36,921 nucleotides of DNA from Acidimicrobiales bacterium (GTDB taxonomy: Bacteria; Actinomycetota; Acidimicrobiia; Acidimicrobiales; JAUJNH01). Below, piece after piece: positions 2,311 through 32,907 of the stretch. The stretch covers positions 1-36,921 of the forward strand of contig JBBPYZ010000038.1 in NCBI GenBank assembly GCA_038199465.1, in the 5' to 3' direction. Below the pieces are notes generated by a model, which ran no database searches, had not been told where the DNA came from, and saw only the letters and a list, made by a program, of their open reading frames with translations. Position 1 is the stretch's first letter. Each line of letters opens with the position of its first letter. Position numbers and translations under genes: made by a program.

Positions 2311-3423
2311 GTGGACGCCGTCGTGCTCGTCGGCGGCTTCGGCACCCGGCTGCGGCCGCTCACCCTCACCGTCCCGAAGAACCTCGTCCCCGTGGCGGGG
2401 GTTCCCCTCATCGAGCGGGTCATCGCCCGTCTGGCCGCCCACGGCGTCGACCGGGTGGTGCTGTCGCTCGGCTACCGGCCGGACAGCTTCTTCGCCGCCT
2501 TCCCCGACGACACCGTCGCCGGGGTCCCCCTCACCTACGTGGTCGAGCCCGAGCCCCTCGACACCGGAGGGGCCATCCGCTTCGCCGCCCGCCAGGCCGG
2601 CCTGCGCGACACCTTCCTGGTGGTCAACGGCGACGTGCTCACCGACCTCGACTTCACCGAGCTGATCGACGCCCACCGGCGAACGGGAGCCGAGGCCACC
2701 ATCGCCCTCACCCCCGTCGAGGACCCCTCCCGCTTCGGTGTGGTCACCACCGACAACGACGGTCGGGTCACGGCATTTCTCGAAAAGCCGGCCTTCCTCG
2801 AGCAGCCTGCCCCGGGCACGGCGCCGACCAACCTGATCAACGCCGGCACCTACGTGTTCGAGCCCTCGGTGCTGGCCCGGATCCCGGCCGACCGGAAGGT
2901 GTCGCTCGAGCGGGAGGTGTTCCCGGCCCTGGTGGCCGACGGCACCCTCTTCGCCCTCGCCTCCGAGCGCTACTGGCTCGACGTCGGGCTGCCCGACTCC
3001 TACCTGCAGGCCTCGACCGACCTCCTCGACGGCACCCGGGGCGCCGGTCCGCCCACCCCAGGCGCCGACCGCCGGGCCGAGGGGGGCTGGACGCTGGGCG
3101 AGCCCGTCGTCGACCCTGGCGCCGACATCGACGACCAGAGCCTGCTGTGCGACGGCTGCCACGTGGGCCCGGCCGTCGAGGCCCGCCGCTCGGTGATCGG
3201 TCCGGCCAGCCGGGTGGCCGGCGGGGTCCGGCTCGAGGACGCCGTGCTGCTGGCCGGCGCCATCATCGGCGAGGGCGCGCTCATCGAGCGCAGCATCATC
3301 GGCCCCGGCGCCGTGGTCGGCGCCGGGGCGAAGGTCACCGATCTCTCGGTGCTGGGCGAAGGCGTCGTGGTGCCGGCTGGCACCTCGCTGTCCGGCGCTC
3401 GAGTGCCCGACCAGCCCGACTGA
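2311..3423 (+). CDS. Mannose-1-phosphate guanylyltransferase (GDP-mannose pyrophosphorylase; Rv3264c ManB-like, E. coli ManC function)
   Basis: GTG 2311 is in frame with track ORF 2125..3423. VDAVVLVGGFGTRLRPLTLTVPKNLVP is a nucleotidyltransferase G-loop. INAGTYVFEP and SLEREVFPALVADG blocks match my recollection of M. tuberculosis ManB. The C-terminus has hexapeptide-repeat (left-handed beta-helix) character. Confidence 0.9.
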   Translation: MDAVVLVGGFGTRLRPLTLTVPKNLVPVAGVPLIERVIARLAAHGVDRVVLSLGYRPDSFFAAFPDDTVAGVPLTYVVEPEPLDTGGAIRFAARQAGLRDTFLVVNGDVLTDLDFTELIDAHRRTGAEATIALTPVEDPSRFGVVTTDNDGRVTAFLEKPAFLEQPAPGTAPTNLINAGTYVFEPSVLARIPADRKVSLEREVFPALVADGTLFALASERYWLDVGLPDSYLQASTDLLDGTRGAGPPTPGADRRAEGGWTLGEPVVDPGADIDDQSLLCDGCHVGPAVEARRSVIGPASRVAGGVRLEDAVLLAGAIIGEGALIERSIIGPGAVVGAGAKVTDLSVLGEGVVVPAGTSLSGARVPDQPD

Positions 3424-3441
3424 CTGCACGGAAGCCCTGCG

Positions 3442-3939
3442 GTGAGCGTGGCGGATCCGGAGCGGTCCAGGAGCAGAGCGGTGGTGGCACAGGCCGGGAC
3501 GCCGGGGGAGCCAGGGCCGCTGCTGCGGATCGCGCGCGACCAGCGAGTCGTGTTCCTCGTCGTCGGCGTCGTCAACACCGCCGTCGGGGTGGCGTGGTTC
3601 ACGTCCTTCCAGCTGATCCTGGGCGGGGTCGTGCACTACCTCGTCGTGCTGCTGATGGCGCACGTCGCCAGCGTGCTGTGCGCGTTCGTCCTCTACCGTC
3701 GCGTCGTCTTCCGGGTTCGCGGCCCCGTATGGCGAGACCTGTTGCGATTCCAACTCGTCTACGTCACGGCGCTCGTCGTGAACTTCCTGCTCCTGCCGAT
3801 GCTCGTGGAGATCGCCGGTGTGCCGGTCCTCCCGGCACAGTTCCTCATCGTCGGCGTGACGGCCATGATCAGCTTCTTCGGGCACAAGCACTTCTCGTTC
3901 CGCCGGCCGTCGATCCACCAGGACGGGGATTGGCCGTGA
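3442..3939 (+). CDS. GtrA family membrane protein (polyprenyl-phosphate-sugar handling/flippase family)
   Basis: Track ORF of 165 aa with four predicted TM helices. It shows a GtrA-like N-terminus (FLVVGVVNTAVGVAWF) and C-terminus (ISFFGHKHFSFR). Confidence 0.85.
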   Translation: MSVADPERSRSRAVVAQAGTPGEPGPLLRIARDQRVVFLVVGVVNTAVGVAWFTSFQLILGGVVHYLVVLLMAHVASVLCAFVLYRRVVFRVRGPVWRDLLRFQLVYVTALVVNFLLLPMLVEIAGVPVLPAQFLIVGVTAMISFFGHKHFSFRRPSIHQDGDWP

Positions 3940-4778
3940 GGGGTCCTCGGGTCTCTGTCGTGGTGCCCACCTACCAGAACGCCGCCTTTGTCGAGGCGAC
4001 GATGCGCTCGGTGCTCACCCAGACGTTCGCCGACTTCGAGCTCGTCGTCGCCGACCAGTCGTCGACCGACGGCACGTGGGAGGTGCTGCAGCAGTTCAAG
4101 ACAGACCGCCGGGTCCAGCTCCTGCGCACGGACTCAGGGGGAGGGGCGCCTTGCAACTGGAACCGGGTGACCGACGCTGCCCAGGGGGAGCTGATCAAGC
4201 TCGTGTGCGCTGACGATCTCGTGCGGCCGGCGTGCCTGTCGGAGCAGGTGGCGGCTCTCGACGCGGCGCCGACCGCGGTGATGGTCGCCTGCCGACGCGA
4301 GATCATCGACGCCCGGGGCTGCACGGTCGTGCGGTCCCGCGGCCTGCCGAGGATGACCGGACTGGTTCGAGGCCAAGCCGCCGTCCGGCTCGCCGTGCGC
4401 GCCGGCACCAACGTGTTCGGTGAGCCAGCCTGCGTCATGATGCGGCGGGCGGTGCTCGAGGAGGCCGGTGGCTGGGCCGCTTCGCAGCCGTACCTGATCG
4501 ACCAGGGGACGTACGCGAACGTCCTGCGCCACGGGGATCTCGTCGCCCAGCCTCAGGTGCTGGCGGCGTTCAGGATCAGCGCCCAGGCCTGGAGCGTGGC
4601 GCTGGTCCAAGACCAGGCGCGGCAGGCCGCGCGTTTTCACCGATCCCTCATGGGGTCGGACGGCGTCGTGTCGGCGTCGGACGTGCGCCTCGGCAACGCC
4701 CGGGCGCTGCTGATGGCGCACGGCCGGCGCCTGGCGTACCTGCGGCTCGGTGCTCGCATGCACCCAGCACCCCGGTGA
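3936..4778 (+). CDS. Glycosyltransferase family 2 (soluble GT-A)
   Basis: GTG 3936 is in frame with track ORF 3147..4778 and overlaps the GtrA stop as GTGA. RVSVVVPTYQNAAFVEATMRSVLTQTFADFELVVADQSSTDGT is a classic GT2 N-terminus. CADD is the DxD-type motif. No TM helices are seen. Confidence 0.85.
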   Translation: MRGPRVSVVVPTYQNAAFVEATMRSVLTQTFADFELVVADQSSTDGTWEVLQQFKTDRRVQLLRTDSGGGAPCNWNRVTDAAQGELIKLVCADDLVRPACLSEQVAALDAAPTAVMVACRREIIDARGCTVVRSRGLPRMTGLVRGQAAVRLAVRAGTNVFGEPACVMMRRAVLEEAGGWAASQPYLIDQGTYANVLRHGDLVAQPQVLAAFRISAQAWSVALVQDQARQAARFHRSLMGSDGVVSASDVRLGNARALLMAHGRRLAYLRLGARMHPAPR

Positions 4779-7093
4779 CCAACACGTTGGCCTCCACCGA
4801 GGCGGGCCCGGCTGGGGCTACAGGCCCCGGCGACACCGGCCGGGAACCCCGCCGCCGGCCGTCCGCCCGCCTCGGCGAGCTTCCGCTGTACCTGGCGGCC
4901 CTTGGCCTGACCTGTCTCTTCACGACGCTGGCGCTGCAGCTGTGGGACGCCAGCCGGGCCGTCCCGTTCACCTACGATGGCGATGCCCTGGCGGTCGGAG
5001 CCCACTTCAAGACCGTGTTGGAGACCGGGTGGTACGAGAACCAGCCGATGCTCGGGGCGCCGTTCGGGCAGATGTACCACGACTTCCCGCAGGCCGACAA
5101 CCTTCACCTGGCCGCCGTCGCCGTCATGAACGTCTTCGTCGACAACTGGGCGGTCGCGTTCAACGCCTACTACCTGCTGGGCTTCCCCCTCGCCGCTCTC
5201 ACCGCGGTCTGGTTCTTCCGGCTGGTGGGGGTCTCACGTGCGTTCACGTTGGTGCTGGCCGTGCTGTTCGCGCTTCTGCCCTACCACTTCGAGAAGAACC
5301 AGGGGCACCTGTTCCTCGCCTCGTACTACCCGGTGCCCCTGGGGGCTGGCGTCGTTCTCATGGCCTTGCGAGGCACATCGCTCTGGAGCCTGGGGGCGGG
5401 TGCGCGCTCGCGCGTCCTCGCCCGGTTGACCTGCCCCGCGGTGCTGACCGTGCTGGCGATGGTGCTGGTGGGCGCGGCCTCGACGTACTACAGCATCTTC
5501 ACCGCGATCCTGCTGGCCGTCGCCGGGCTGGTCGCCCTGTGGCGGGACGGCAGCTGGCGACGCTTCGTGGGCGCCGCGGCCGCCGGAGCCCTTCTGTTGG
5601 CCACGATGCTCGTGAACATGGCCCCGGACCTGCTCTACGCCCGAGGTCGGGAGGCCAACACGCTCGCATTCACGCGGGACGCTGGCGAGGCGGATGTCTA
5701 TGGGCTCAAGTTGGCGCAGCTGCTGCTGCCCTCCTTCCACCATCGCTGGCAACCGCTGGGCGAGCTGCGTTTGACCTACAACCGTGAGTTCCCGCTCCCG
5801 AGCGAGTCACCCGTGCTCGGTGCGGTCGCGGCGGCCGGCCTGGTCATCCTCCTCATCGTCGTGGTGTCCGCCTTGGCCCGGCGGCGGCCCGCTTCCGCCC
5901 GCACGAGCCTTCGGCTGCGGCACCTCGCCCTCCTCACGCTCGTCTCGTTGGGGGTGGCCGGGATCGGCGGCTTCTCGACGCTCATCGCACTCTTCGTCAC
6001 GGACAACGTGCGCAGCTGGAACCGGATGTCGATCTTCATCGCGCTCTTCTGCCTCGCGGCGGTCGGCGTCGCCCTTGACGTGCTGGTGCGGTGGGTGCAA
6101 TGCCTGCGTCCCGACAGCCGCAAGCTCGGTGTCGTCCTGCCGACGGTTCTGGGGTTGTTCTTGATGGGGCTCGGGATCCTGGACCAGACGAGTGGCGACT
6201 ACATCCCGAACTACAAGGGTGTGCGGGAGTCGTACTACAGCGACGCGGCGTACGTGCGGGAGATCGAGGACCAGCTGCCGGCCGGCGCCGCCGTCTACCA
6301 GGTGCCACATCAAGTGTTTCCGGAGTCGCCGGCCGTCAACGGCGTGCCTGACCCGGACCCGTTGCGGTTGTACCTGAGCTCCACCGACACGCGATGGAGC
6401 GCGGGCGGTCTGAAGGGCCGGCCGCAAGCCGACTGGCCGTTGCGACTGGCCGACAAGCCGATCTCCACGGTCGTCCCCCTGCTCGCGGTCTCCGGCTTCT
6501 CCGGCATCAGCGCGGACCGCCTGGCGCTCGGAGATGCGGCCGCACGGTTGGAGGACGACCTGACGTGGCAGCTCGGTGCAGGACCGACAGCGGCGAGCAG
6601 CGATGGCCGATTCGTGTTCTGGCCGCTCGCCGGTGCCGAGGCGGAGATGGCCAGCCGCTACGACGAGTCCGCTCGGGAGGCGCTGCGTGCGTCGACCCTG
6701 CTGCCGCCGGTTCCGTACGCCGGGCCCGGCTTCGAACGCCCCATGGTGCTCGACGGCAAGGTGGTGTGGCGCAGCCGGAAGCCGACAGCGCAGCTCCTGC
6801 TGGACAACCCCCGGGACAGCCCCCTCGCCGTGCACCTCTCCTTCGCATTGGCCTCGGTGGCGGGTGCCGAGAACGTCGAGGTCCGGCTTCCGGGCCGCGA
6901 CCCGATCTCTTTGGACCTGACTGAGGGTCTGGCCCCGGTTGCGGTGGACCTCGTACTCCGCCCGGGACACAGCGTCGTCCGGCTTCGCGTCACGTCGGCG
7001 GCCCGGGTGGTCGCCGGGCCGCCTCGCCCTGCGGCATTCGATGTCATCGACATCGACCTGACCGACCCCGCCTTTGAAAGCTTTCAGCCCTGA
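4775..7093 (+). CDS. Polytopic membrane protein, putative GT-C-type glycosyltransferase with a C-terminal extracytoplasmic domain
   Basis: Track ORF of 772 aa. The start GTG overlaps the previous stop as GTGA. There are many hydrophobic helices. An acidic YDGD motif sits in the first loop right after TM1, which is typical placement for GT-C enzymes. A soluble domain of about 270 aa follows the last helix. The exact family is not recognised. Confidence 0.75.
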   Translation: MTNTLASTEAGPAGATGPGDTGREPRRRPSARLGELPLYLAALGLTCLFTTLALQLWDASRAVPFTYDGDALAVGAHFKTVLETGWYENQPMLGAPFGQMYHDFPQADNLHLAAVAVMNVFVDNWAVAFNAYYLLGFPLAALTAVWFFRLVGVSRAFTLVLAVLFALLPYHFEKNQGHLFLASYYPVPLGAGVVLMALRGTSLWSLGAGARSRVLARLTCPAVLTVLAMVLVGAASTYYSIFTAILLAVAGLVALWRDGSWRRFVGAAAAGALLLATMLVNMAPDLLYARGREANTLAFTRDAGEADVYGLKLAQLLLPSFHHRWQPLGELRLTYNREFPLPSESPVLGAVAAAGLVILLIVVVSALARRRPASARTSLRLRHLALLTLVSLGVAGIGGFSTLIALFVTDNVRSWNRMSIFIALFCLAAVGVALDVLVRWVQCLRPDSRKLGVVLPTVLGLFLMGLGILDQTSGDYIPNYKGVRESYYSDAAYVREIEDQLPAGAAVYQVPHQVFPESPAVNGVPDPDPLRLYLSSTDTRWSAGGLKGRPQADWPLRLADKPISTVVPLLAVSGFSGISADRLALGDAAARLEDDLTWQLGAGPTAASSDGRFVFWPLAGAEAEMASRYDESAREALRASTLLPPVPYAGPGFERPMVLDGKVVWRSRKPTAQLLLDNPRDSPLAVHLSFALASVAGAENVEVRLPGRDPISLDLTEGLAPVAVDLVLRPGHSVVRLRVTSAARVVAGPPRPAAFDVIDIDLTDPAFESFQP

Positions 7094-7137: not shown

Positions 7138-8184
7138 GTGCTTGAGGACGCCGAGGCGGAGCAACCGCATCGGGTCTCCGTCGTGATCCCGGTGTACCAG
7201 GGCGAGCGGACGCTCTCCGGCGTCGTAGATGAGGTGCTCCAGCTCGCCACTCCGACGCTATCCCCAGACGGCAACCTGGTCGTCGTCAGCGAGATCCTCC
7301 TAGTCCACGATCATGGCCCGGACGAGTCCGCGGACGTCATCCGGCGGCTCGAGGTCGAGCATCCCCGGGTGAGGTCGCTTTGGCTGAGTCGCAACTTCGG
7401 TCAGCACGCGGCCACCTTGGCGGGCATGGCCTCCTCAGGCGGCGACTGGATCGCCACACTGGACGAGGACGGCCAGCACGACCCTGCCGTCCTGCCCTCC
7501 TTCGTCGACGCGGCCCTCCGGGACGGCGCGACCTTGGTCTATGCGGCTCCGACGAACCGGGCTCCCCACGGCTTCTTCCGCAACACCGCATCCCGGACCG
7601 CCAAGTGGCTGGTGGCGCGGCTGGCCGGCGAGGAGACCACCAAGTACCAGAGCTATCGGTTGGTGCTCGGCGAGATCGGCCGGAGCGTCGCCGCCTACTC
7701 GGGATCCGGCGTCTACCTGGACGTGGCGATCGGCTGGGTCAACGCCAAGACGACGACGTGCCCCGTCCGATGTCGAGGTGAGGGGGGTCGGCGGTCCGGC
7801 TACTCCGGCCGGCGGCTGCTCTCACACTTTTGGCGGCTCGTGTTGTCAAGCGGTACCAGGGCGCTCCGGATCGTCAGCTGGCTGGGGGTGATGTTCGCCG
7901 TCATCGGTGTCGTCGTCGCCGGCTCCCTGGTGGTGTCCCGGCTCACCGGCGCCACCGTTCCGGAGGGTTGGACCTCCACCGTCGTGGCGCTCCTCCTCGG
8001 CACCGGAGCGATCCTCTTCTCACTTGGGGTGATCGCTGAGTACCTCGGCGTCGCGGTGAACATGGCGATGGGAAAGCCCCTCTACCTCATCGTGTCGGAT
8101 CCGGCGCATGGTCCACTTGCCCGTCCGAACGCACCGCGGCGTGGTGCTGCAGGGAACTTGGAAGACGAGTCCCGTCACGGATGA
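7138..8184 (+). CDS. GT2 polyprenyl-phosphate glycosyltransferase (GtrB/ArnC/Dpm1-like) with two C-terminal TM helices
   Basis: Track ORF of 348 aa. VSVVIPVYQGE, LSRNFGQHAATLAGM and LDEDGQHDP motifs are typical of polyprenyl-phosphate sugar synthases. C-terminal helices are WLGVMFAVIGVVVAGSLVV and VVALLLGTGAILFSLGVIAEYLG. Confidence 0.85.
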   Translation: MLEDAEAEQPHRVSVVIPVYQGERTLSGVVDEVLQLATPTLSPDGNLVVVSEILLVHDHGPDESADVIRRLEVEHPRVRSLWLSRNFGQHAATLAGMASSGGDWIATLDEDGQHDPAVLPSFVDAALRDGATLVYAAPTNRAPHGFFRNTASRTAKWLVARLAGEETTKYQSYRLVLGEIGRSVAAYSGSGVYLDVAIGWVNAKTTTCPVRCRGEGGRRSGYSGRRLLSHFWRLVLSSGTRALRIVSWLGVMFAVIGVVVAGSLVVSRLTGATVPEGWTSTVVALLLGTGAILFSLGVIAEYLGVAVNMAMGKPLYLIVSDPAHGPLARPNAPRRGAAGNLEDESRHG

Positions 8185-9170
8185 CGGCCCTCACCTGGGT
8201 GGTCGGGCGCGGCGGCTTGCTGGGCGGCGCGGTCGAACGGGCCCTGTCCAGGACCACCGCCGTGTGGACGCCGTCCGAGCAGGTGCCGTGGGACGACCAC
8301 CGCGCCGCGGCGGCGCTGCTGCGGGCCACTGAAGGCTTTGCCGCCGCGGCGGGATCCGGTACGTGGCAGCTCGCCTGGTGTGCTGGTGCGGGCGTGACGA
8401 CATCGACGGCCGGTGAGCTGACCGTCGAGATCAGGCTTCTCCAGATGACTCTTGAAGCGCTCGCCAGGAGCGGGCTCGGGTCAGGGGCAGTCTTCCTGGC
8501 CAGCTCGGCCGGCGGGGTGTACGCCGGAGCCCCAGGCACCCCACCCTTCACTGAGCACACGCCGCCGGTCCCCTTGTCCCCGTACGGCGCGGCGAAGCTC
8601 GAGGCTGAGCGCCTCGCGGTCACGTGGGGCCGGCGAACCGGGATACCCGTGGTCGTCGGTCGCATCGCGAACCTCTACGGCCCCGGACAGAGCCTCCTCA
8701 AGCCGCAGGGCCTGATCTCGCGGTTCTGTCTGGCCCACCTCACCGGTCAGCCCCTGTCCATCTACGTGCCGCTTGACACGGTGCGGGATCACCTCTACGT
8801 CGACGACTGCGCCGCTCTGGTCGCCCAGACCTTGCGAGCAGCTCACCGGTTGCCCGCCGGCACCTCAGTCACGAAGATCCTGGCCTCGCACCGCGCGCTG
8901 ACCATCGGCGCGCTGCTGGGAGAGATGCGCCGGCTCCTGCGCCGGCCACCCCGGATCGTCTTCGGCGCATCCGCGGCGGCTCGCTTCCAGGCGCTCGACC
9001 TGCGCCTGCAGTCGGTGACGTGGCCAGAGCTCGACCGGCGCACCTTGACACCGCTCCCGGTCGGGATCAGCGAGACGATGGAGGATCTTCGGGCTGCGCT
9101 GCGGATGGGTTCTCTGTGGCCCCCGGTTCACGCCTCGGCGGACCTCCAACGCTCCGGAGCAGTCGGGTGA
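8181..9170 (+). CDS. NAD-dependent epimerase/dehydratase family (extended SDR)
   Basis: Track ORF of 329 aa. The ATG overlaps the previous stop as ATGA. GRGGLLG fits a GxxGxxG Rossmann motif. SPYGAAKLEAE contains YxxxK. Confidence 0.85.
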   Translation: MTALTWVVGRGGLLGGAVERALSRTTAVWTPSEQVPWDDHRAAAALLRATEGFAAAAGSGTWQLAWCAGAGVTTSTAGELTVEIRLLQMTLEALARSGLGSGAVFLASSAGGVYAGAPGTPPFTEHTPPVPLSPYGAAKLEAERLAVTWGRRTGIPVVVGRIANLYGPGQSLLKPQGLISRFCLAHLTGQPLSIYVPLDTVRDHLYVDDCAALVAQTLRAAHRLPAGTSVTKILASHRALTIGALLGEMRRLLRRPPRIVFGASAAARFQALDLRLQSVTWPELDRRTLTPLPVGISETMEDLRAALRMGSLWPPVHASADLQRSGAVG

Positions 9171-9219
9171 GCCTTGTGCCGGTCGGCTCCGCCTCGCTCC
9201 GATCTCGTGGAGGGCCTTG

Positions 9220-24961: not shown

Positions 24962-25026
24962 AATCCCGTAACATCCCCGCCAGAACGCCGCCCTTAGCTT
25001 AGGGCGCCAGCAGCGAACGCGGAACC

Positions 25027-26006: not shown

Positions 26007-27944
26007 CTAGCGAGCGGCGTCCGGGGCTGCTCGCATCCGCCCGGGGCCGGCCCCGGGACCTCCGGTATCCGCCGATGGTTCCTCGGCCGTGCGTGGAGAT
26101 CCCAGCTGCTCGATGGTCTCACGAGGCGGAGGGTGACCGAGTACCGTCCACTGCTGAGCTTCAGGCGCGGTCGGGTACTGGTCCCAGTACTCGTCGCTCA
26201 CCATATGGCGGTAGGCCCGGCCGTATGAGCGCTTCAGGGTGCCGAAGCGGAGCGGGATGCGCCCGGCGGTGAGGAGCATCTGGGGAAGCAGTCTGAAGAA
26301 GAGGTTGCGGTCCCTGGTGGCGACGAAGCCCCTCGCCCGTTGTCGGTCTCGGTAGAGGATCTGGGTCCGAAGCAGCGAGACGTGCAGGGCTCGCTGTTGG
26401 ACAGGCACGGCGCCGATGGGGCTGCGCTGCATCCGGCGAGGTAGGACGTGACCTCCGAGGAGCCCGATAGACGCGAGGCTGGCGGCCAGCTTCCTGATCT
26501 TGCTCTTCGAGGGTAGGTCGTCGACTGCCATGAGGGCCTCGGTGAGGGGTTCGATCCGTTCGCCGCGGTAGCGGGCCACCTCGTCGTTGAGCTTGGAATG
26601 ATCGATGGTGAGCCAATGTTCCGGTCCGCGAAGGAACTCACGCATGCCCAAGGTGATGCTGGCGGCGCTTGCGTACTTGAAGCTGAGCAGGCTGCGGCCG
26701 CAGATGTTCAGGTAACGGTTCAGGAGGTGCCACCACCTGACGTCGGGCTGGGCGAGCACGCTGATGAGTGCGAAGTTGCGGGTGTCATAGAACCAGGTGA
26801 GCGGGCCCTGCTTGTCATCGAAGTCGGCATGCCACAGGCCGATTCCGTTGAACGTCACGGTGTGGGAGCCGGCGTGGAGGAGGCCCCAACAGACGTCGTC
26901 GCCCCGGATGAAGGCCGGGATCGGGTTCTCCTCGGTGAGGCTCAACGGGAACGCGAAGTACCACCAGGCTCCGTAATCGATGTGTTCGTACTCTCGCTCG
27001 GCGCCCAGCAGCGCGGTCCAGTCAGCGAGGTCAAGGTCTTGGCCGAGGGCCCGAGTCGGGTAGACCGCGGTGCCGACGAAGCGGGCCCCCGCTTCGAACT
27101 GCCTGGTCTGAGCGCTCTGCTGGAGCATCGCCCCGGCGATGCAGAGGTGGTCGTCGCGGGCGTAGGAGAGGACCTGGATCGTACGGAAGACGATCTCGGG
27201 GTCGAAGCTGACGTCATCGTCCATGAACAGGACGTGGGTGGTGCCGGCCTGTCGGCGGAAGTGCTTGAGGCCCCGGGTGAAACCGCCGGCGCCGCCGGTG
27301 TTGGGGTTCGGGAGCACCGTGATGGACGTCCCGGCCGTGATCTGTGGATCGAGGTTGCGACCGTTGTCGACCACGGCGACCGCGAGCCGGTCGGCATAGG
27401 ACGGGGCCAGCTCGAGCTCTGCGATCAGACCGTTGAGGTTCGCCCTGACCTCGGCAGGTCGGTTGAAGGTGGTGATGACGAGCCCGAGCCGGGCGACGAG
27501 GCCGGGCGTGTCGCTGGTGCGCCACTGCGCGTTGCGAAGGGTGGCGCCGTCACCCAGGCAGCTGATGCGCAGGAACACCGCTCCGTCCCCGAGGGTGTCG
27601 AGGGGCGGGAGGCCGAGCTCGGACCAGGTCGGCTTGTCGGCGACGACCTCGGTGCTAGCGATGACGTCGGGACTCCGGTCGAGACGATCGTGGACCACCT
27701 CGATCCGGCAGGCGCCCGAGATCTCAACCGCGACCGTGAGCTGCCTGACCGTGGTGTGCCGCAGCCACTTCCCGACCCCGAAGGCGTTGAAGTAGGTGTC
27801 GAACTGCACGATCCCGCCGACGCCGAGACGCACCTGTCGATCGAGGACCGAGTGCTCGGCGTCGCGCACCGGCCTGACGTAGAGCTCGGTGCTGGGGCAC
27901 AGTTCGAAGGACGGGAAGCGGAACCGGCACAAGACGGTGGCCAA
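26007..27944 (-). CDS. GlfT2-family galactofuranosyltransferase (paralogue B)
   Basis: Track ORF of 645 aa with a TTG start that aligns with the start of its paralogue. N-terminal domain has FDTYFNAFGVGKW. The GT-A core has VITTFNRP, NTGGAGGF and LFMDDDVSF. Further blocks are YGAWWYFAFP, IRGDDVCWGL...WHADF and LRGPEHW. These match my recollection of M. tuberculosis GlfT2 (ATYFNAF, IPTFNRP, NLGGSGGY, FMDDDI, WDDADYGL). Confidence 0.88.
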   Translation of the reverse strand: MATVLCRFRFPSFELCPSTELYVRPVRDAEHSVLDRQVRLGVGGIVQFDTYFNAFGVGKWLRHTTVRQLTVAVEISGACRIEVVHDRLDRSPDVIASTEVVADKPTWSELGLPPLDTLGDGAVFLRISCLGDGATLRNAQWRTSDTPGLVARLGLVITTFNRPAEVRANLNGLIAELELAPSYADRLAVAVVDNGRNLDPQITAGTSITVLPNPNTGGAGGFTRGLKHFRRQAGTTHVLFMDDDVSFDPEIVFRTIQVLSYARDDHLCIAGAMLQQSAQTRQFEAGARFVGTAVYPTRALGQDLDLADWTALLGAEREYEHIDYGAWWYFAFPLSLTEENPIPAFIRGDDVCWGLLHAGSHTVTFNGIGLWHADFDDKQGPLTWFYDTRNFALISVLAQPDVRWWHLLNRYLNICGRSLLSFKYASAASITLGMREFLRGPEHWLTIDHSKLNDEVARYRGERIEPLTEALMAVDDLPSKSKIRKLAASLASIGLLGGHVLPRRMQRSPIGAVPVQQRALHVSLLRTQILYRDRQRARGFVATRDRNLFFRLLPQMLLTAGRIPLRFGTLKRSYGRAYRHMVSDEYWDQYPTAPEAQQWTVLGHPPPRETIEQLGSPRTAEEPSADTGGPGAGPGRMRAAPDAAR

Positions 27945-27945
27945 C

Positions 27946-28788
27946 TCAGAGCTCCTCGGCGAAGTAGCGGGCCTTGCGGGAAAAGTACAGGTAGCCCGTC
28001 AGGAAGATGGTGAGCGAGAGCGTGAGGAGCACGGCGAGGGTGGTGAGGCCGGGGCGGGCGCCGTCGAAGAGGATCCGCCGGTAGACCAGGATGAAGCGGG
28101 CCATGGGGTTGTACAGCAGGATGGTGCGGACGGGGATGTCGAGTCCGAAGAGATCGAGACGAGACGGGATCTGCTCGACTGGATAGATGATCGGGGTGAT
28201 GAAGAACCACACCGTCAGGGCCAGACCGGTGAGGTAGGGAACGTCACGGCTGCGCACGCTGGCGGCTGATAGGAACAGGGCGATCCCCGTGACGAAGAGG
28301 GTCTGCAGGAACATCACCACGATCAACCAGGGCAGCAAGGTGAGGGTGGAGAACCCGAAGACCAGAAGGAGCAGGACGTTGACGGTGAGCTCGATGGCCA
28401 GGGTGACGAGCAGGGAGAGGACGTTGGCGAACACGATCAGCTCGCGGGGGAAGTAGACCTTGCTGATCAGGGCGTGGGCGCCCAACATGGCTCCCGTCGA
28501 CCCCAGGATGCCGTTGGCCAGGTAGTTCCAGGGCAGCAGGCCGGCCAGGAGGAAGAAGGCAAAGTTGTCGTTGCCGCTCGGCTGGCCCGTCTCCGGGTTG
28601 GACCCCAAGAACAAGCCGAAGACGAGGGCGTAGCAGAGCGTGATGACCACGGGGTTGAGCAGCGACCACCCCCACCCGAGCAGGGACCGGCGGTAGCGGG
28701 TGCGCAGCTCCCGCAGGGTCAGGTTCTGCAGCAGCTCCTTGTGGGCGAAAACCTCGCGAGCGGCGGCGATCACGGCGCCGCGCACCAA
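27946..28788 (-). CDS. wzm: ABC-2 type polysaccharide export permease (Wzm/RfbD-like)
   Basis: Track ORF of 280 aa. LLQNLTLRELRTRYRRSLLGWGWSLLNP is the typical Wzm N-terminal block. There are six hydrophobic helices. GTG 28773, which overlaps the wzt stop as GTGA, is an alternative start. Confidence 0.9.
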   Translation of the reverse strand: MVRGAVIAAAREVFAHKELLQNLTLRELRTRYRRSLLGWGWSLLNPVVITLCYALVFGLFLGSNPETGQPSGNDNFAFFLLAGLLPWNYLANGILGSTGAMLGAHALISKVYFPRELIVFANVLSLLVTLAIELTVNVLLLLVFGFSTLTLLPWLIVVMFLQTLFVTGIALFLSAASVRSRDVPYLTGLALTVWFFITPIIYPVEQIPSRLDLFGLDIPVRTILLYNPMARFILVYRRILFDGARPGLTTLAVLLTLSLTIFLTGYLYFSRKARYFAEEL

Positions 28789-29948
28789 CCGCCACCGAGA
28801 GCGACGAGACCGCCCTCGTCGGCGCCGGGCTGCGGGTCGACCTCGAAGTCGAAGTGATCGGTGGCGTCCAGCAGCTCCTGGGTCTCGTCGTCGACGAGCC
28901 AGGTGTGCAGCACGTAGGAGCCTGGCAGCAGCGGGAGCTCGGGGATCTCGTAGGTCAGCGCCATGCCCGCGGCCAGCGGGACGCTGAGCGCCGGGTTCGA
29001 CCGGGTGCTGACCTGGCTCACGAACACGCCGTCGCTGCGACGGATGTCGATGCCGAGCACGTGGCGGTGGTCGCTGCTGATCGGGTCGACCGTCAAGCGC
29101 AGGGCCAGCTTTTCCCTGGCCACGGGCCGCTCGCCGGATTCGGTGACCAACTCTGCCACCCTGACCCGGGCGGCTCCGCTACCGAAGCGCAACCTGCCCT
29201 CGTCGTCAACCACCGCGTCAGGGTGCACCGACCGTTGGTACTCCTCGATGACCTCGCTGGTGGGGCCCAGCGCCTTCAGGTCGCCGCGGGCGATCCAGAC
29301 CACCTCGCTGCACAGCTGGCGGACCAGCCCCAGGTCGTGGCTGACGATCACCACGGTACGACCGCTGGCCCGCAGCTCGGCGATCTTCTCGGCGCAGCGG
29401 CGCTGGAACACCGCGTCTCCGACTGACAGCGCTTCGTCCACCAGCAGCACGTCGGGTTCCACGTTGACCGCCACGGCGAAGCCCAGGCGGGCGTGCATGC
29501 CCGAGGAGTAGGTCTTCACCTGGTTGTCGATGAACTCCTCCAGCCCGGAAAAAGCGACGATGGCGTCGAGACGGTGGTCGAGGGTCTTGCGGGACAACCC
29601 CAGGATCGACCCGTTCAGGTAGACGTTCTCCCGACCGGTCAGGTCGGGGTGGAACCCGGCTCCCAGCTCGAGCAGCGCCGACACCTTCCCCTTCACCGCT
29701 ACGGTCCCCGCATTGGGGACCAGGATGCGGGCCATCAGCTTCAACGAGGTGCTCTTGCCCGAGCCGTTGGATCCGATAAGGCCGAAGGTCGTCCCCTCGG
29801 GGATCTCGAAGCTCACGTCCGACAGGGCGCTCAGGTCGCTGTAGCGGCCCTGGCCCCGGTGGAGCACCCTCGCCTTGAGGGAGTCGTTGCGCTCGTGCCA
29901 GATCCGGTAGCTCTTCGACACGCCCTGGAAGCTGACTGCTGAGGTCAC
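28770..29948 (-). CDS. wzt: Polysaccharide ABC transporter ATP-binding protein (Wzt/RfbE-like) with a C-terminal extension
   Basis: GTG 29948 (VTSAVSFQGVSKSY) is in frame with track ORF 28770..30191 and overlaps the glf stop as GTGA. Walker A is GLIGSNGSGKST, the signature is YSSGMHARLGFA, Walker B is VLLVDEALSVGD, and the H-loop is in VIVSHD. About 150 residues lie beyond the nucleotide-binding domain. Confidence 0.9.
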   Translation of the reverse strand: MTSAVSFQGVSKSYRIWHERNDSLKARVLHRGQGRYSDLSALSDVSFEIPEGTTFGLIGSNGSGKSTSLKLMARILVPNAGTVAVKGKVSALLELGAGFHPDLTGRENVYLNGSILGLSRKTLDHRLDAIVAFSGLEEFIDNQVKTYSSGMHARLGFAVAVNVEPDVLLVDEALSVGDAVFQRRCAEKIAELRASGRTVVIVSHDLGLVRQLCSEVVWIARGDLKALGPTSEVIEEYQRSVHPDAVVDDEGRLRFGSGAARVRVAELVTESGERPVAREKLALRLTVDPISSDHRHVLGIDIRRSDGVFVSQVSTRSNPALSVPLAAGMALTYEIPELPLLPGSYVLHTWLVDDETQELLDATDHFDFEVDPQPGADEGGLVALGGGWCAAP

Positions 29949-31096
29949 GGCCCGATCGGATCGACGAAGAACTGCGGCGCGGGCTCGTTGCGCGCCAGCC
30001 GGGCCAGGAAGCCGGAGGCCGCGTCGAGGGCCTCCTTCACCGTGGCGTCCATGTCGAGGTAGCGGTAGGTCCCGAGCCGGCCGAGGAAGGTGGTGCGCTC
30101 GGCCGTCCAGGCCATCTCGATGTAGCGGTGCAGCTGCGCCTTCTCCCGCACCTGGCGGACCGGGTAGTACGGGAGGTCGTCGGGCCCGCACGCCCGGCTG
30201 AACTCACGGTAGATCGTGGTGCGGTCATGGCGTTCCCACGGCGCGAAGTGCTTGAACTCGGTGATGCGGGTGAAGGGCACATCGGCGTCGCAGTAGTTCA
30301 TCACCGGGCAGCCCTGGTGGTCGCCGTCGTGGCGTTCGACCTCGAAGTCGAGGGTCCGGTAGGCGAGGCGCCCGTGGGCGTAGCCGAAGTAGGCGTCGAT
30401 CGGCCCGGTCCAAAAGCAATGGTCGTAGGCGGCGGCGTCAGCCCGTTGCACCGCCTGCCCCAAGGTGACGGCGATGCCGGGATGGTCGAGGATCGCTTCG
30501 ATCAGCGCCGTGTATCCGAGGGCCGGAATCCCCATGTGGGGATGGTCGAAGTAGACGTCGTCGTAGTTGAAGCGCACGGGCAGCCGCTTCAGGATGCTGG
30601 CCGGCAGCTCGCTCGGATCCACCCCCCACTGCTTCTTGGTGTAGCCGGCGAAGAAGGCCTCGTACAGGTCCTTGCCCACGAAGGCCAGCCCCTGCTCCTC
30701 GAAGCTGACCGGCTCGAGAATGGAGGGGTCGGCCCGGGCTGCGATGTACGTCCGAGCCTCGGCCGGCCCCATCGTCGTGCCGAAGAACTGGTTGATGGTG
30801 AGGAGGTTCACCGGAAGGGCGTACACCCGACCCTGAGCCGTGGCCTTCACCCTGTGGCTGTAGGCCTCGAAACGCCCGAACCGGTTCACGTACTCCCACA
30901 CCTCGGGCCACGCCGTGTGGAAGATGTGGGGCCCGTACACGTGCACCATCACCCCCGTGGCGTCGTCGCGGGCGGTGTGGCAGTTGCCGGCCACGTGATC
31001 CCGCACGTCGAACACCTCGACCCGGTGCCCGGCCTCGGCCAGCTGGCGGGCGATCACCGAACCGGAGAAGCCAGCCCCGGCCACCAGGACCCTCAT
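29945..31096 (-). CDS. glf: UDP-galactopyranose mutase
   Basis: ATG 31096 (MRVLVAGAGFSGSVIARQLAE) is in frame with track ORF 29945..31474 and overlaps the upstream stop as ATGA. YGPHIFHT, the FAD-binding GxGxxG motif and the YRTLDFE and PYYP blocks are typical of UGM. Confidence 0.95.
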   Translation of the reverse strand: MRVLVAGAGFSGSVIARQLAEAGHRVEVFDVRDHVAGNCHTARDDATGVMVHVYGPHIFHTAWPEVWEYVNRFGRFEAYSHRVKATAQGRVYALPVNLLTINQFFGTTMGPAEARTYIAARADPSILEPVSFEEQGLAFVGKDLYEAFFAGYTKKQWGVDPSELPASILKRLPVRFNYDDVYFDHPHMGIPALGYTALIEAILDHPGIAVTLGQAVQRADAAAYDHCFWTGPIDAYFGYAHGRLAYRTLDFEVERHDGDHQGCPVMNYCDADVPFTRITEFKHFAPWERHDRTTIYREFSRACGPDDLPYYPVRQVREKAQLHRYIEMAWTAERTTFLGRLGTYRYLDMDATVKEALDAASGFLARLARNEPAPQFFVDPIGP

Positions 31097-32907
31097 TCGG
31101 GCCGCCGGGCTTCGTGGGCGTCGCTGGGGGCGTCGCCGCCGAACTGACGCTGCCAGTAGGCGTCGCCGGTGAGGGCGGGGTAGGCCGCCCGGTAGTCGTC
31201 CCTCAGCTGACCGAACCGGCTCGGGATGCGGGCCGCCGTCCTGGCCATCTCGCCGAGGGTTGAGAAGAACCGCTTCCGGTCGCGGCTGGCGACGAAGCCC
31301 TCGCCGGTGGCCTCGTAGCGGTACACCACCTCCTCCCGCCCGAGGACGCCGTAGGGCGACCATGCCGCCATCTCGAGGGCGACGGGGGGCCGGCGGCAGA
31401 TCCGGGCGGGCAGGGCATGGCCCGACAGGACCAGTGCGGAGGCGAGCCCGCCGATCTTCACCACCCCGGGCCACCTCGGCGTGAAGGAGGGGACGCCGAG
31501 CGACGCACGCTCGAGCGGGCCGGACCGTTCCCCCGGGTGCTGGCGGATGTCATGGTTCACCTGCTCGTGGTCGAGCTCCAGCCACGCCTCCGGCCCGGCG
31601 AGGAACTGGCGCATCCCGGCGATGTCCGCCGCGGCGGTGTCGTACTTCATGGCCAGCGCCATCCGGGTGGTGTGGTACACGAAGCGGCGGGTGAGGTGGA
31701 AGGCCGAGAACCGGTCCGAGGCCAGCAAGCTCACCAGCGACAGGTTGCGGGATTCGTAGTAGAACGCCGCCGGACCGTTCTTCTGGGCGAAGTGCTGGTG
31801 CCACACCCCGATCCCGTTCATCGTGACCGTGTGCTGGCCGGCGTGGCGCAACCCGAAGCAGATGTCGTCGCCCCGCACAAAGACCGGCAGCGGGTTGGCC
31901 TCGGTCAGCTCCAGAGGGAAGGCGTAGAACCACCAGGCGCCGTAGCCGGCGGGTCGCTCGACGTCGTTCTCCACCAGGTTGCGCCACGTGCGCAGGTCGA
32001 GGTGGCTGCCGATCGGCCGGAACGGCCGCACGCCCTCGGTCCGGAAGGCGGCCCCCGCCTCGAACTGGACATAGGGCGTCTCCTCCATCAGCATCGCACC
32101 GGCTACGCATAGCTGCGGGTCACGGGCGTGAGCAAGCAGCTCGATCGTGCGAAAGATCACCTCCGGCTCAAAGCTGATGTCGTCGTCCATGAACAGGACG
32201 TGGCTGACCTTGCCGCCGTCGCGGAAGTGCATGAGGCCACGGGCGAAGCCCCCGGCGCCGCCCAGGTTCCTGTTCGGCACCACGGTGATCGGGACCGTTG
32301 CCGGCAGGGACACCTTGACGTTGCTGCCGTTGTCGACCACCAGGATCTCGAGCAGCTCGAGGTAGCCGGGCTCCTCCTTCAGCGCGTCGGCTAGGCGGAC
32401 CAGGTTCCGCTCCAGGTACTCGGGCCGGTTGTAGGTGGTGATGACCACGCCCAGGGACACCGCACGGGCGGGCTGGGAGTCGGTGGTGATCTCGCCGCCG
32501 AAGAAGGTCGTCTCCGGACTCAGACCACGGATCTTCAGATAGAGCTGGCCGTCGGTCAGGTCGTCCAACGAGAGCGGTTCGAGCTCGAACCAGGATCGAG
32601 CTTCGGAGCTGAAGACCCCGGCCGCGACGGTGCGGGCGGCGCGGTGGGCGTGGTTCAGGACCAGCTCGGCCTCGAAGTGCCCGCGGGCCTCGAAGCGGAC
32701 GACGATGTGCTCCACCCCCGTGTGCCGACGCCACTTCCCCACGCTGAACCCGTTGAAGTAGGTGTCGAGGTGGGCGGAAGAGCCCTGCAACAAGCGGACC
32801 TCGGCCATGGCGTACGAGAACCACGAGCCGTTGAGGCAGTTCACGTAAAGCTCGGCCTGCGGGCACAGGTCGATCTTGGGGAGGAGGAACCGCTGCAACC
32901 TTGACAT
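31093..32907 (-). CDS. GlfT2-family galactofuranosyltransferase (paralogue A)
   Basis: ATG 32907 (MSRLQRFLLPKIDLCPQAELYV) is in frame with track ORF 31093..33090 and is preceded by AAAAGGGG. Blocks LDTYFNGFSVGKW, VITTYNRP, NLGGAGGF, LFMDDDISF, YGAWWFYAFP, VRGDDICFGL...WHQHF and LAGPEAW are present. Confidence 0.88.
   Translation of the reverse strand: MSRLQRFLLPKIDLCPQAELYVNCLNGSWFSYAMAEVRLLQGSSAHLDTYFNGFSVGKWRRHTGVEHIVVRFEARGHFEAELVLNHAHRAARTVAAGVFSSEARSWFELEPLSLDDLTDGQLYLKIRGLSPETTFFGGEITTDSQPARAVSLGVVITTYNRPEYLERNLVRLADALKEEPGYLELLEILVVDNGSNVKVSLPATVPITVVPNRNLGGAGGFARGLMHFRDGGKVSHVLFMDDDISFEPEVIFRTIELLAHARDPQLCVAGAMLMEETPYVQFEAGAAFRTEGVRPFRPIGSHLDLRTWRNLVENDVERPAGYGAWWFYAFPLELTEANPLPVFVRGDDICFGLRHAGQHTVTMNGIGVWHQHFAQKNGPAAFYYESRNLSLVSLLASDRFSAFHLTRRFVYHTTRMALAMKYDTAAADIAGMRQFLAGPEAWLELDHEQVNHDIRQHPGERSGPLERASLGVPSFTPRWPGVVKIGGLASALVLSGHALPARICRRPPVALEMAAWSPYGVLGREEVVYRYEATGEGFVASRDRKRFFSTLGEMARTAARIPSRFGQLRDDYRAAYPALTGDAYWQRQFGGDAPSDAHEARRPE

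Follow-up and report, generated by a model that had tools for sequence, protein, structure and literature searches.

Polymerisation of a glycan on a lipid carrier in the cytoplasm, export through an ATP-binding cassette (ABC) transporter and decoration by membrane glycosyltransferases of the GT-C fold make up a plan that has been described for Salmonella T1 (PMC11294581), Citrobacter O1/O2 (PMC11127046) and Gram-positive wall polysaccharides (PMC8035078, PMC9574508). Orthologs of the galactofuranosyltransferase GlfT2, at 23-38% identity, occur together with the mutase Glf and the exporter Wzm/Wzt in diverse producers of galactofuranose (Galf) homopolymers (PMC11294581), and in Citrobacter a GT-C enzyme with a carbohydrate-binding module (CBM), of family GT136, and an auxiliary epimerase of the short-chain dehydrogenase/reductase (SDR) type modify an exported D-rhamnose/mannose O antigen (PMC11127046). 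Here we compare these systems, and the mycobacterial galactan pathway (Glf, GlfT1, GlfT2 and the Wzm-Wzt pair Rv3783/Rv3781), with a glycan locus on contig JBBPYZ010000038.1 of an Acidimicrobiales bacterium (assembly GCA_038199465.1). An initial annotation, made from the letters alone, had proposed that some 30 kb of this DNA form a single pathway for a wall polysaccharide with a galactofuran core, ABC export, GT-C decoration and a supply of GDP-D-rhamnose. Our comparison of neighbourhoods makes a different account probable: a cell-envelope glycan locus, the main one of its host, in which a conserved scaffold carries swappable cassettes, the modules being separable and not co-evolved, in the manner of O-antigen and Gram-positive wall-polysaccharide loci.

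The window, by which we mean the whole stretch analysed, is the complete 36,921-bp contig of the protein record, with a G+C content of ~70%. Genes were called by third-position GC and annotated with Pfam and NCBIfam, which gave 31 coding features, the same count as before; all components listed in the initial annotation were recovered at or near the same positions with significant family matches, and the interval holds further genes beyond that list, namely a family 2 glycosyltransferase (GT2) at 3936-4778, CofE/CofD, a flavoenzyme resembling UDP-galactopyranose mutase (UGM), a peptidoglycan hydrolase and an IS3 insertion-sequence (IS) remnant. The nearest relatives of the window are Acidimicrobiales metagenome-assembled genomes (MAGs) at 77-94% amino-acid identity, and because the closest relatives are contigs of such MAGs we place the host in the Acidimicrobiia; an origin in the Corynebacteriales, which had been left open, can be set aside.

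For comparison, 72 loci related to the gene for a GT2 fused to a GT-C domain (GT2::GT-C) were fetched with 10-kb flanks each. Most are labelled Acidimicrobiia/Acidimicrobiales, and the weakest, which match the GT2 domain alone, belong to other phyla. Gene presence, absence and order across the loci L011-L055 were read by tblastn with the window proteins (the hydrolase, g19, was outside the query set). L011 (JBBSKY010000006.1) is an Acidimicrobiales MAG contig with 85-95% amino-acid identity to the window over the common genes; a further 7.5 kb upstream of it (L095) was recovered via an exact DNA pattern, for a total of 31.5 kb fetched, and a genome scan with CofD for the relative's upstream region returned one distant Anaerolineaceae match only. 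L089 and L090 are further close Acidimicrobiales MAG contigs with annotated neighbourhoods, L001 and L087, likewise among the closest, are contigs of one Acidimicrobiales MAG (GCA_038232515.1), L002 comes from a Geodermatophilaceae MAG, and L091 is a Joint Genome Institute (JGI) contig.

The galactofuranan genes of the window lie in a discrete insertion. Positions 17746-24952 and 33269-36921 match L011 at 90-92% DNA identity (blastn) and are ~50 bp apart there; between them the window carries 8.3 kb (island 3) with a peptidoglycan hydrolase gene, a five-gene galactofuranan cassette and an IS remnant. The remnant stands exactly between the gene for the GlfT2 paralog b and the FtsH stop codon, at the right-hand end of the inserted block. 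Within 10 kb in L011-L055, tblastn found nothing homologous to the five genes of the cassette (g20-g24). We found no direct or inverted repeats around the 8.3 kb such as would delimit a transposon, those seen reflecting only the GlfT2 paralogy, and the window holds no Rfam family and no tRNA, hence no tRNA-linked island. The GC content at third codon positions (GC3) is 0.94 in the scaffold versus 0.87-0.91 in the islands.

An assembly chimera was considered as the source of the insertion and rejected, since both flanks rejoin the same syntenic backbone and a 98.4%-identical cassette fragment exists in an independent metagenome. This fragment, the 1.3-kb contig L092 (PPFU01226505.1), covers window 30699-32033, the junction of Glf and GlfT2b, and on the strength of its identity the same population, cassette included, also occurs elsewhere.

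The same cassette is found in other surroundings. L002 has the genes in the same order, GlfT2b-Glf-Wzt-Wzm-GlfT2a, between an SDR gene and threonine synthase; L091 has the cassette directly after ManC (83% identical), with a GT2 resembling dolichol-phosphate mannose synthase (DPM); and L001 has its GlfT2b-Glf end, at 77-87% identity, beside 3-deoxy-D-arabino-heptulosonate-7-phosphate (DAHP) synthase and sulfite reductase, the contig stopping inside Glf. In L087, the scaffold contig of the same MAG as L001, the thioredoxin (Trx)-like gene leads straight to FtsH, without the cassette. The idea that the 30 kb were inherited as one cluster is not supported by this block, which is absent from a ~90%-identical relative and sits elsewhere beside genes of primary metabolism or after ManC. 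These neighbourhoods argue that the galactofuranan cassette is a recently inserted, mobile accessory module. A hydrolase gene was not seen beside the cassette in the visible stretches of L002 and L091 (g19 was outside the tblastn query set for L002).

What the relatives carry instead is an exchange of parts. L095/L011 and L089 have a different Wzm/Wzt (35-55% identical, with a Wzt_C domain in L089) and family 4 glycosyltransferase (GT4) genes upstream of the UGM-like gene, and the window, L095/L011 and L089 each have one ABC exporter in the locus. This exchange of exporter and glycosyltransferases resembles serotype-type replacement at a hotspot, and because relatives fill the role of the polymer module with different Wzm/Wzt and GT4 genes, galactofuranan would be a strain-level variant and not a lineage-defining wall core. 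The exchange is at the same time the chief reason to think that functions of the scaffold could still act on the Galf polymer.

Around these variable parts the scaffold is stable. In about 40 Acidimicrobiia loci tblastn recovered the order ManC, CofE/CofD, a variable stretch, GT2::GT-C, DUF5719, usually a Trx-like gene, FtsH on the other strand and a PTPS-related GT-C; ManC is 46-56% conserved in about 35 loci, CofE/CofD are kept in about 40, and GT4 genes are often present in the variable stretch between CofE/CofD and the GT2::GT-C gene. Annotated neighbourhoods extend the scaffold downstream with DUF3499, a CPBP protease, a GT2 and phosphomannomutase, and in those of L087, L089 and L090 the scaffold order is kept. 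The comparison of neighbourhoods across Actinomycetota that the initial annotation had called for yields a recurrent scaffold and, against its single pathway, at least three cassettes that vary independently, so that the 30 kb are not one co-inherited cluster. F420 genes stand in the middle of the interval; CofE/CofD are a matter of scaffold synteny, outside any glycan pathway. The features are collected in Table 1.

Table 1. Features of the window, with the match or conservation on which each assignment stands (cut-offs are those of the curated models; SAM, S-adenosylmethionine; AF2, AlphaFold2; TM, transmembrane)
Feature	Position	Strand	Evidence
GT4 glycosyltransferase, scaffold side	136..1311	+	Pfam Glyco_transf_4 and Glycos_transf_1; 80% identical in L083 (tblastn)
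Membrane-anchored hypothetical protein upstream of ManC	1431..2306	+	No Pfam match; 73% identical in L083, same position
ManC-type mannose-1-phosphate guanylyltransferase, scaffold	2311..3423	+	NTP_transferase 171.6 bits; NF052502 312 bits (cut-off 440)
GtrA-family small membrane protein, putative polyprenyl-phosphate-sugar flippase, island 1	3442..3939	+	PF04138 63.8 bits; same position in L083
Soluble GT2 glycosyltransferase, island 1	3936..4778	+	PF00535 86.4 bits; no GlfT1 match; 75% identical in L083
GT-C-fold membrane glycosyltransferase, 772 aa, C-terminal CBM-like beta sandwich, DUF6311-related, island 1	4775..7093	+	AF2/Foldseek
ArnC/GtrB-type polyprenyl-phosphate GT2, island 1	7138..8184	+	NF007986 110 bits (cut-off 529); PgfS 80 bits
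Short extended-SDR epimerase/reductase, island 1	8181..9170	+	Epimerase 83 bits from residue 83 on; YxxxK present; start overlaps GT2 stop
SAM-dependent methyltransferase, island 1	9217..9834	+	Methyltransf_11 and Methyltransf_25
CofE and CofD, coenzyme F420 biosynthesis, scaffold	9847..11540	-	TIGR01916 254.7 bits (cut-off 180.65); TIGR01819 284.4 bits (cut-off 257.45)
Gmd, GDP-mannose 4,6-dehydratase	11537..12520	-	TIGR01472 421.9 bits (cut-off 415, passed)
Eukaryote-type UGM-like flavoenzyme, PRK07208 family	12811..14247	+	NF005548 806 bits
GT-C (PMT_2/ArnT-like), tandem paralog 1	14252..15922	-	PMT_2 E 1.5e-4 (below cut-off); Rv1635c-type model E 2e-8; ~13 TM helices
GT-C (PMT_2/ArnT-like), tandem paralog 2	16004..17602	-	PMT_2 E 6.8e-3 (below cut-off); 58% identical to paralog 1
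Rmd-like SDR, candidate GDP-4-keto-6-deoxy-D-mannose reductase	17849..18754	+	PDB 2pk3 199 bits, 6x3b 197 bits (Rmd structures); next 129 bits
Small conserved helical protein, divergent from GT2::GT-C gene	18777..19241	-	Sub-threshold apolipoprotein-like matches only
GT2 (GT-A) domain fused to GT-C-fold membrane domain and extracytoplasmic beta domain, 1299 aa, scaffold	19233..23132	+	Glyco_tranf_2_3 57.8 bits
DUF5719 protein, N-terminal anchor, scaffold	23129..24520	+	PF18986 87.3 bits; start codon overlaps fusion-gene stop
Membrane-anchored thioredoxin-like protein, scaffold	24521..24961	+	Weak Thioredoxin_2 match; 43-92% in relatives
8.3-kb insertion vs L011: peptidoglycan hydrolase, five-gene galactofuranan cassette, IS remnant (island 3)	24953..33268	.	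blastn
Peptidoglycan hydrolase	25027..25896	-	Glucosaminidase domain and PG_binding_1
GlfT2-family galactofuranosyltransferase, paralog a	26007..27944	-	Glft2_N, GT2 and GlfT2_domain3; PDB 4fix E 1.5e-40, full length
Wzm ABC-2 permease	27946..28788	-	PF01061 45.5 bits; galactan permease model 66.6 bits (cut-off 380)
Wzt ATPase with C-terminal carbohydrate-binding Wzt_C domain	28770..29948	-	ABC_tran PF00005 73.5 bits; PF14524 31.4 bits (cut-off 30.4); start position inferred
Glf, prokaryote-type UGM	29945..31096	-	PF03275 243.8 bits; TIGR00031 294.7 bits (cut-off 303.75)
GlfT2-family galactofuranosyltransferase, paralog b	31093..32907	-	Pfam three-domain set; PDB 9dtp E 9.5e-37, 4fix E 5.9e-33
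IS3-family transposase N-terminus remnant, 60 residues	33082..33261	+	HTH_21 E 6.3e-5, 23.6 bits (cut-off 28.1)
FtsH, scaffold flank	33262..35316	-	Peptidase_M41 and AAA; 94.7% identical in L011
DUF3499, scaffold flank	35425-35634	+	PF12005 42.4 bits; same order in L089, L090
CPBP/Rce1-like protease, scaffold flank	35688-36458	+	PF02517 65.3 bits; same order in L089, L090
5' end of PTPS_related GT-C-type membrane protein, scaffold	36511..36921	+	L011/L089 orthologs PF10131 40.5/37.5 bits (cut-off 26.4)

The core assignments of the cassette, Glf with two GlfT2-family polymerases and Wzm/Wzt, are supported by hidden Markov models, Glf scoring just under its TIGR00031 cut-off, and those of the two polymerases also by full-length alignments to PDB entries. 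The two GlfT2 paralogs share about 45% identity. Each carries the PF17994 beta-barrel, the PF00535 GT-A and the PF19320 helical C-terminal domain and can be aligned over its whole length with 4fix and 9dtp (E 1e-33 to 1e-40, ~560-590 residues), and the FMDDD, GDD and WH columns of these structures align in both. In GlfT2 the DDD motif binds metal, and roles are also assigned to the downstream DD and WH motifs. The Wzm and Wzt genes adjoin, overlapping, inside the glycan locus, and the alignment of Wzt_C extends to the proteins of L002 and L091. By these family matches the cassette seems to provide its own donor synthesis, polymerisation and export, with a primer needed from elsewhere.

If this set is laid beside the mycobacterial galactan pathway, the likeness extends to the supply of UDP-Galf by Glf, the polymerases of GlfT2 fold, an exporter of Wzm/Wzt type and a polymer whose assembly presumably takes place on a cytoplasmic lipid carrier. 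Unlike that pathway, however, the window has two GlfT2 paralogs in place of a GlfT1 equivalog; the absence of GlfT1 noted initially holds, the best score of a window gene against NF050113 being 29.5 bits versus a cut-off of 330. The window Wzt has a C-terminal carbohydrate-binding domain, and the exporter falls far below the cut-offs of the NCBIfam galactan exporter models NF050108 and NF050109 (66.6 bits vs 380 and 169.4 vs 400). The decaprenyl-phosphoryl-arabinose (DPA) pathway is missing from the window, where UbiA, DprE1 and DprE2, already reported absent, have no Pfam or NCBIfam match in any of the 31 called genes, and so are family matches to Emb, AftA and AftB: Emb/Aft have no Pfam match, and two of our models show fold similarity to AftD and AftA at a template-modelling (TM) score of 0.26-0.46. 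Nor do the window genes match the Pfam families of WecA or of the LytR-CpsA-Psr (LCP) ligases. Mycobacterial galactan is moreover the product of a core essential cluster, whereas the window cassette is a mobile accessory insertion in an Acidimicrobiales host. The arabinogalactan logic invoked in the initial annotation is only partly borne out: polymerisation on a cytoplasmic lipid carrier, ABC export and GT-C decoration fit the families found, but the plan is not specific, since it has been described for T1, Citrobacter and Gram-positive wall polysaccharides, lactococcal ones included.

The Galf polymers of the Salmonella T1/Klebsiella galactan type (PMC11294581) share with the window a compact locus of glf, wzm, wzt and a GlfT2 ortholog and a patchy, strain-variable distribution. 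They differ in that the window host is of Gram-positive type, without a lipid A-core acceptor, and in that the window lacks the adaptor glycosyltransferases WbbN/WbbO and has two GlfT2 paralogs. Judged by gene content, the organisation of the cassette seems closer to these ABC-dependent Galf homopolymer loci, as surveyed around Salmonella T1, than to mycobacterial galactan.

A second separable part, island 1 (3442-9834), comprises GtrA, a GT2, a GT-C with CBM, an ArnC-type GT2, an SDR and a methyltransferase. It recurs as a unit by homology: in L083 the order is GT4, hypothetical, ManC, GtrA, GT2, GT-C, an extra gene and the ArnC-type GT2, at 62-81% identity, and Cellulomonas hominis has GtrA and GT2 as well as the pair of ArnC-type GT2 and SDR, the latter 66% and 49% identical (L084 2092-4073, the Cellulomonas hominis stretch). 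The pairing suggests either a conserved donor-synthase/epimerase unit or horizontal transfer. Cellulomonas hominis belongs to a different class from the window host. There, in a large wall-glycan cluster that also has rhamnose genes, two Gmd-like genes immediately precede the GT-C homolog.

The GT-C of island 1 has no Pfam or NCBIfam match of its own, although homologs carry PF19830, and homologs at 40-45% identity, some annotated as DUF6311, are common in Micrococcales. An AF2 model (mean predicted local distance difference test score, pLDDT, 84.7, from a 38-sequence alignment) has as its best PDB fold matches by Foldseek AftD, AglB, ArnT, DPY19, STT3 and Pmt4; the beta sandwich at its C-terminus is similar to CBM29 and CBM35, and D70, after the first TM helix (TM1), is invariant in the alignment. 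The initial pairing of a GtrA protein with a GtrB/ArnC-like GT2 stands, the latter being a putative donor synthase with two C-terminal TM helices at residues 249-300. The parts of island 1 would thus correspond to the published three-component glycosylation scheme (GtrA/GtrB/GtrV, ArnC/ArnEF/ArnT and the Gram-positive CsbB/GtcA/YfhO type; PMC8035078, PMC9574508), with which they share a putative polyprenyl-phosphate GT2, a GtrA-type flippase and a GT-C with an acidic residue after TM1, but the window has four or five GT-Cs for one recognisable donor synthase. The closest precedent for island 1 is the Citrobacter GT136 system (PMC11127046), where ORF12 parallels the GT-C with its CBM-like domain and ORF13 the adjacent SDR; that system, in contrast, has a donor synthase dependent on phosphoribosyl pyrophosphate (PRPP) and a MATE flippase, whereas the window enzymes are of GtrB/ArnC type, dependent on nucleotide sugars, and of GtrA type.

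Island 2 consists of Gmd (11537-12520) and two tandem GT-Cs (14252-17602). A W-x-D-E-G motif after TM1 is invariant in all four tandem GT-C paralogs compared (two from the window, two from L011), and all four match the same region of the PMT_2 profile; a sequence search of the PDB with the tandem GT-C gave no useful match. The initial count of at least three GT-C enzymes plus a fragment was thus borne out as to the three, and it rises to five GT-C-type proteins once the fusion protein and the protein at 36511 are added. In L011 the two copies stand on opposite strands with an unassigned gene of 502 aa between them (3750-8524), and over the tandem region the two contigs share ~72% DNA identity, versus 90-94% in its flanks.

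Sugar-nucleotide supply is likewise represented. The GDP-mannose pyrophosphorylase, Gmd and Rmd named in the initial annotation are all found by homology, Gmd above its cut-off and ManC with a best match below it, so that the ManC/Gmd/Rmd-like set would be complete. The Rmd-like SDR scores only 83 bits against the GDP-fucose synthase model, and its orthologs adjoin the GT2::GT-C gene in L011, L087, L089 and L090. A branch to a GDP-6-deoxyhexose is thereby indicated, with D-rhamnose as the most likely product. Gmd is probably co-transcribed with, and appears translationally coupled to, the F420 genes cofD/cofE, because its stop codon overlaps the cofD start codon (11537-11540), an odd operon partner for a sugar-nucleotide enzyme; a look-up of the exact Gmd protein returned no record. 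The D-rhamnan system of Pseudomonas aeruginosa, the common polysaccharide antigen (Gmd, Rmd, the GT4 enzymes WbpX/Y/Z and Wzm/Wzt; PMC3560663), has the same route from GDP-mannose to GDP-D-rhamnose through Gmd and an Rmd-type reductase and also GT4 enzymes, methyltransferases and an ABC exporter. In the window, by contrast, the exporter sits in the Galf cassette and the Rmd-like gene beside the GT-A::GT-C fusion, and the sugar made here may be D-rhamnose or 6-deoxy-D-talose.

The UGM-like flavoenzyme stands apart from the Glf of the cassette. Its best PDB matches are the UGMs of Aspergillus fumigatus and Trypanosoma cruzi (E 1e-22); it has more than 8000 homologs, and the best 120 listed share 68-92% identity with it (70-79% in most cases) and come, where a source is named, from Acidimicrobiales or Actinomycetota MAGs, and it is 94% identical in L011. 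Aligned with A. fumigatus UGM it keeps H63, F66, Y104, W167, R182, W315, Y317, R327, R447, Y453, N457 and Q458, and Q107 and N163 are changed. We take the aligned residues to be the His-loop, Arg and Tyr substrate positions of the fungal enzyme and the two changed ones to be its uridine contacts. A literature search for the PRK07208 family found no papers. The gene is divergent from Gmd.

On another actinobacterial contig, L088 (8698-17507), a PMT_2 GT-C, a UGM-like gene (72% identical), a PpgS-like GT2 of 255 aa, DUF2304, a GT4 and an AftD-family GT-C of 1143 aa lie together, an arrangement that would fit a lipid-linked furanose donor system.

The scaffold itself centres on the 1299-aa fusion, which the initial annotation had described as a WbbL-like GT2 joined to a huge membrane and ectodomain protein. 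The fusion is confirmed, the likeness to WbbL is putative, and the membrane part is, according to its AF2 model (pLDDT 74.5), itself of GT-C fold (Foldseek AftD E 2e-5, also AftA and ArnT); for the GT2 domain a PDB sequence search gave no useful match. The fusion gene has more than 1655 homologs and is found in the Acidimicrobiia loci fetched, in most of which a DUF5719 gene follows it directly; a literature search for DUF5719 found no papers. Upstream of it the UGM-like gene, the Rmd-like SDR and the small helical protein stand directly in L011, L087 and L089, and L090 has the Rmd-like SDR and the helical protein without the UGM-like gene, the helical protein being kept in all four. Membership of the UGM-like and Rmd-like genes in a class-wide scaffold was considered and rejected, the two accompanying the fusion gene together only in the closer relatives L011, L087 and L089; the Rmd-like gene without the UGM-like one occurs in L090 and roughly a dozen more distant loci. 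The PTPS_related protein, of which the window holds a fragment 83-91% identical to its relatives, is 988 aa at full length there.

By the gene numbering of M. tuberculosis H37Rv, the scaffold presumably resembles not the arabinogalactan cluster but the neighbourhood Rv3255c-Rv3267, whose order we take to be manA, pmmA, whiB2, fbiA, fbiB, manB (Rv3264c), wbbL1, rmlD and lcp1. Common to both would be CofD/CofE (fbiA/fbiB), GDP-mannose pyrophosphorylase, a GT2 beside an SDR, DUF3499 and, in the relatives, phosphomannomutase. On the same assumption the scaffold differs in that its GT2 is fused to a GT-C and followed by DUF5719, its SDR is Rmd-like and not RmlD, FtsH is inserted, and the window has no LCP gene.

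Computation gave the placement of the proteins in families and folds, the conservation of residues of catalytic type, the insertion, the presence of the cassette and of island 1 in further contexts and the replacement of exporter and glycosyltransferases; each step of the mechanism that follows is read from homology. Glf would make UDP-Galf, and the two GlfT2 paralogs would initiate and polymerise a galactofuranan at the cytoplasmic face on a polyprenyl-diphosphate primer made outside the cassette. Wzm/Wzt would then export the chain, with Wzt_C recognising the chain or its terminus; a modified chain end can be what such a domain recognises (PMC13649706). On the outer side of the membrane, side residues would be attached by GT-C enzymes from polyprenyl-phosphate sugars, the lipid-linked donors being made by the ArnC-type GT2, flipped by GtrA and possibly epimerised by the SDR. 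ManC, Gmd and the Rmd-like enzyme would supply GDP-mannose and GDP-D-rhamnose to cytoplasmic GT4/GT2 enzymes or to the donor synthase, and for the link to peptidoglycan an LCP ligase from another part of the genome would be required. We only infer that the galactofuranan is what the GT-Cs decorate, and likewise that this polymer also receives D-rhamnose.

Several points weigh against a locus of separable modules. The difference in GC3 is slight, and composition is no proof of foreign origin. All functions are assigned by homology, and several matches fall short of the curated cut-off, namely those of ManC, of the two tandem GT-Cs to PMT_2, of the IS remnant and of Wzm/Wzt to the models for galactan exporters. 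The relatives are MAG contigs, and a gene absent within 10 kb is not thereby absent from the genome. With a single ABC exporter in the window and one in the locus of relatives, the Galf cassette could also be the polymer module of the scaffold, in a more integrated pathway, and L091 has the cassette once more within this locus, adjoining ManC and a GT2 of polyprenyl-phosphate type. The last two observations lead toward the reading in which the modules all contribute to one wall polymer resembling arabinogalactan: its core would be a galactofuranan that Wzm/Wzt exports and GT-Cs decorate, and it would bear D-rhamnose and a methyl group. All the enzyme classes needed for it are within 30 kb, and the recurrence of one Wzm/Wzt at the same place in relatives suggests that a polymer module is something the locus requires. 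What a Wzt_C domain reads is usually a terminal modification (PMC13649706), and the window does contain a methyltransferase. In Citrobacter a D-rhamnose/mannose backbone is decorated by a GT-C with CBM (PMC11127046). Yet the modules do not co-occur elsewhere. The cassette is inserted as a discrete block that bears an IS remnant, and its visible flanks in L001 and L002 hold neither GT-C nor GtrA, though they are short on one side (L001 ends in Glf; L002 has 1.6 and 2.7 kb). Island 1 in L083 and Cellulomonas comes without Glf or GlfT2 in the fetched stretches, L011 has GT-C, UGM-like and Rmd-like genes without the Galf cassette in the 31.5 kb fetched, and a distance of 19 kb separates the methyltransferase gene from Wzt, with no such gene in the L002 and L091 copies of the cassette. 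We find a single polymer doubtful.

If the decoration enzymes are unrelated to any wall polysaccharide made by the locus, they might instead glycosylate proteins or membrane lipoglycans, with the GT-Cs, GtrA and the polyprenyl-phosphate GT2 forming a PMT-/Rv1635c-type system that mannosylates from polyprenyl-phosphate mannose and is fed by ManC; the product of the Galf cassette would then be an exopolysaccharide or a capsule-like glycan of no relation to it. The only family matches of the tandem GT-Cs are indeed PMT_2, which is protein O-mannosyltransferase-like, and the Rv1635c mannosyltransferase model, but these are weak and below cut-off. ManC adjoins GtrA, the window has no gene for an LCP ligase or WecA, and in relatives the PTPS_related GT-C is followed by a GT2 beside phosphomannomutase; on the other hand, the GT-C of island 1 has a CBM-like domain typical of GT-Cs that act on polysaccharides (PMC11127046), and the Cellulomonas homolog directly follows Gmd-type genes in a wall-glycan cluster with rhamnose genes. 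Such a division of labour seems to us distinctly improbable, and the scaffold with exchangeable cassettes remains the account we prefer.

A more speculative extension, which we think unlikely, concerns the scaffold, in which, and not in the Galf cassette, the novelty may lie. The GT-A::GT-C fusion with DUF5719, the PTPS-related GT-C, the Rmd-like reductase and the UGM-like mutase may together build a class-wide wall glycopolymer of the Acidimicrobiia, a functional counterpart of the mycobacterial linker/arabinogalactan machinery. If so, then furanose and/or D-rhamnose residues would reach the GT-C enzymes via polyprenyl-phosphate donors, for which lipid-linked Galf, or a furanose from a substrate other than UDP-galactose, would be candidates; the latter is hinted at because the putative nucleotide-contact residues are changed and a divergent Gmd gene adjoins. 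The arrangement in L088 would represent the same idea in another lineage.

Much of this is already familiar, and a specialist would not be surprised by GlfT2/Glf/Wzm/Wzt cassettes or by GtrA/GT2/GT-C modules. Of use are the modularity of the locus, the clean insertion, the structural assignment of the DUF6311-related GT-C with CBM, the class-wide GT-A::GT-C/DUF5719 pair and the conserved UGM relative. We know of nothing on the wall glycopolymers of the Acidimicrobiia, an abundant class of mostly uncultured soil and water Actinomycetota. Our literature search found no characterised product for an orthologous locus, no papers for Acidimicrobiia with galactofuranose, and nothing on Actinomycetota for D-rhamnan/galactofuranan. 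The locus offers a defined place to look, a scaffold at whose hotspot cassettes for polymers and their decoration can be exchanged, and its practical value is modest until the product is determined. As a mobile accessory trait in the Acidimicrobiia, galactofuranan synthesis of GlfT2 type with ABC export bears on arabinogalactan-like chemistry outside the Corynebacteriales, and three families become testable: the DUF6311-related GT-C with CBM, the GT-A::GT-C fusion with DUF5719, and the conserved bacterial relative of eukaryotic UGM.

The diversity of cassettes at the hotspot is illustrated by L087, whose variable part (1-9663) carries genes of GDP-heptose type (SIS, GHMP kinase, HAD, NTP transferase and Gmd-like) together with a second amine-oxidase-like flavoprotein.

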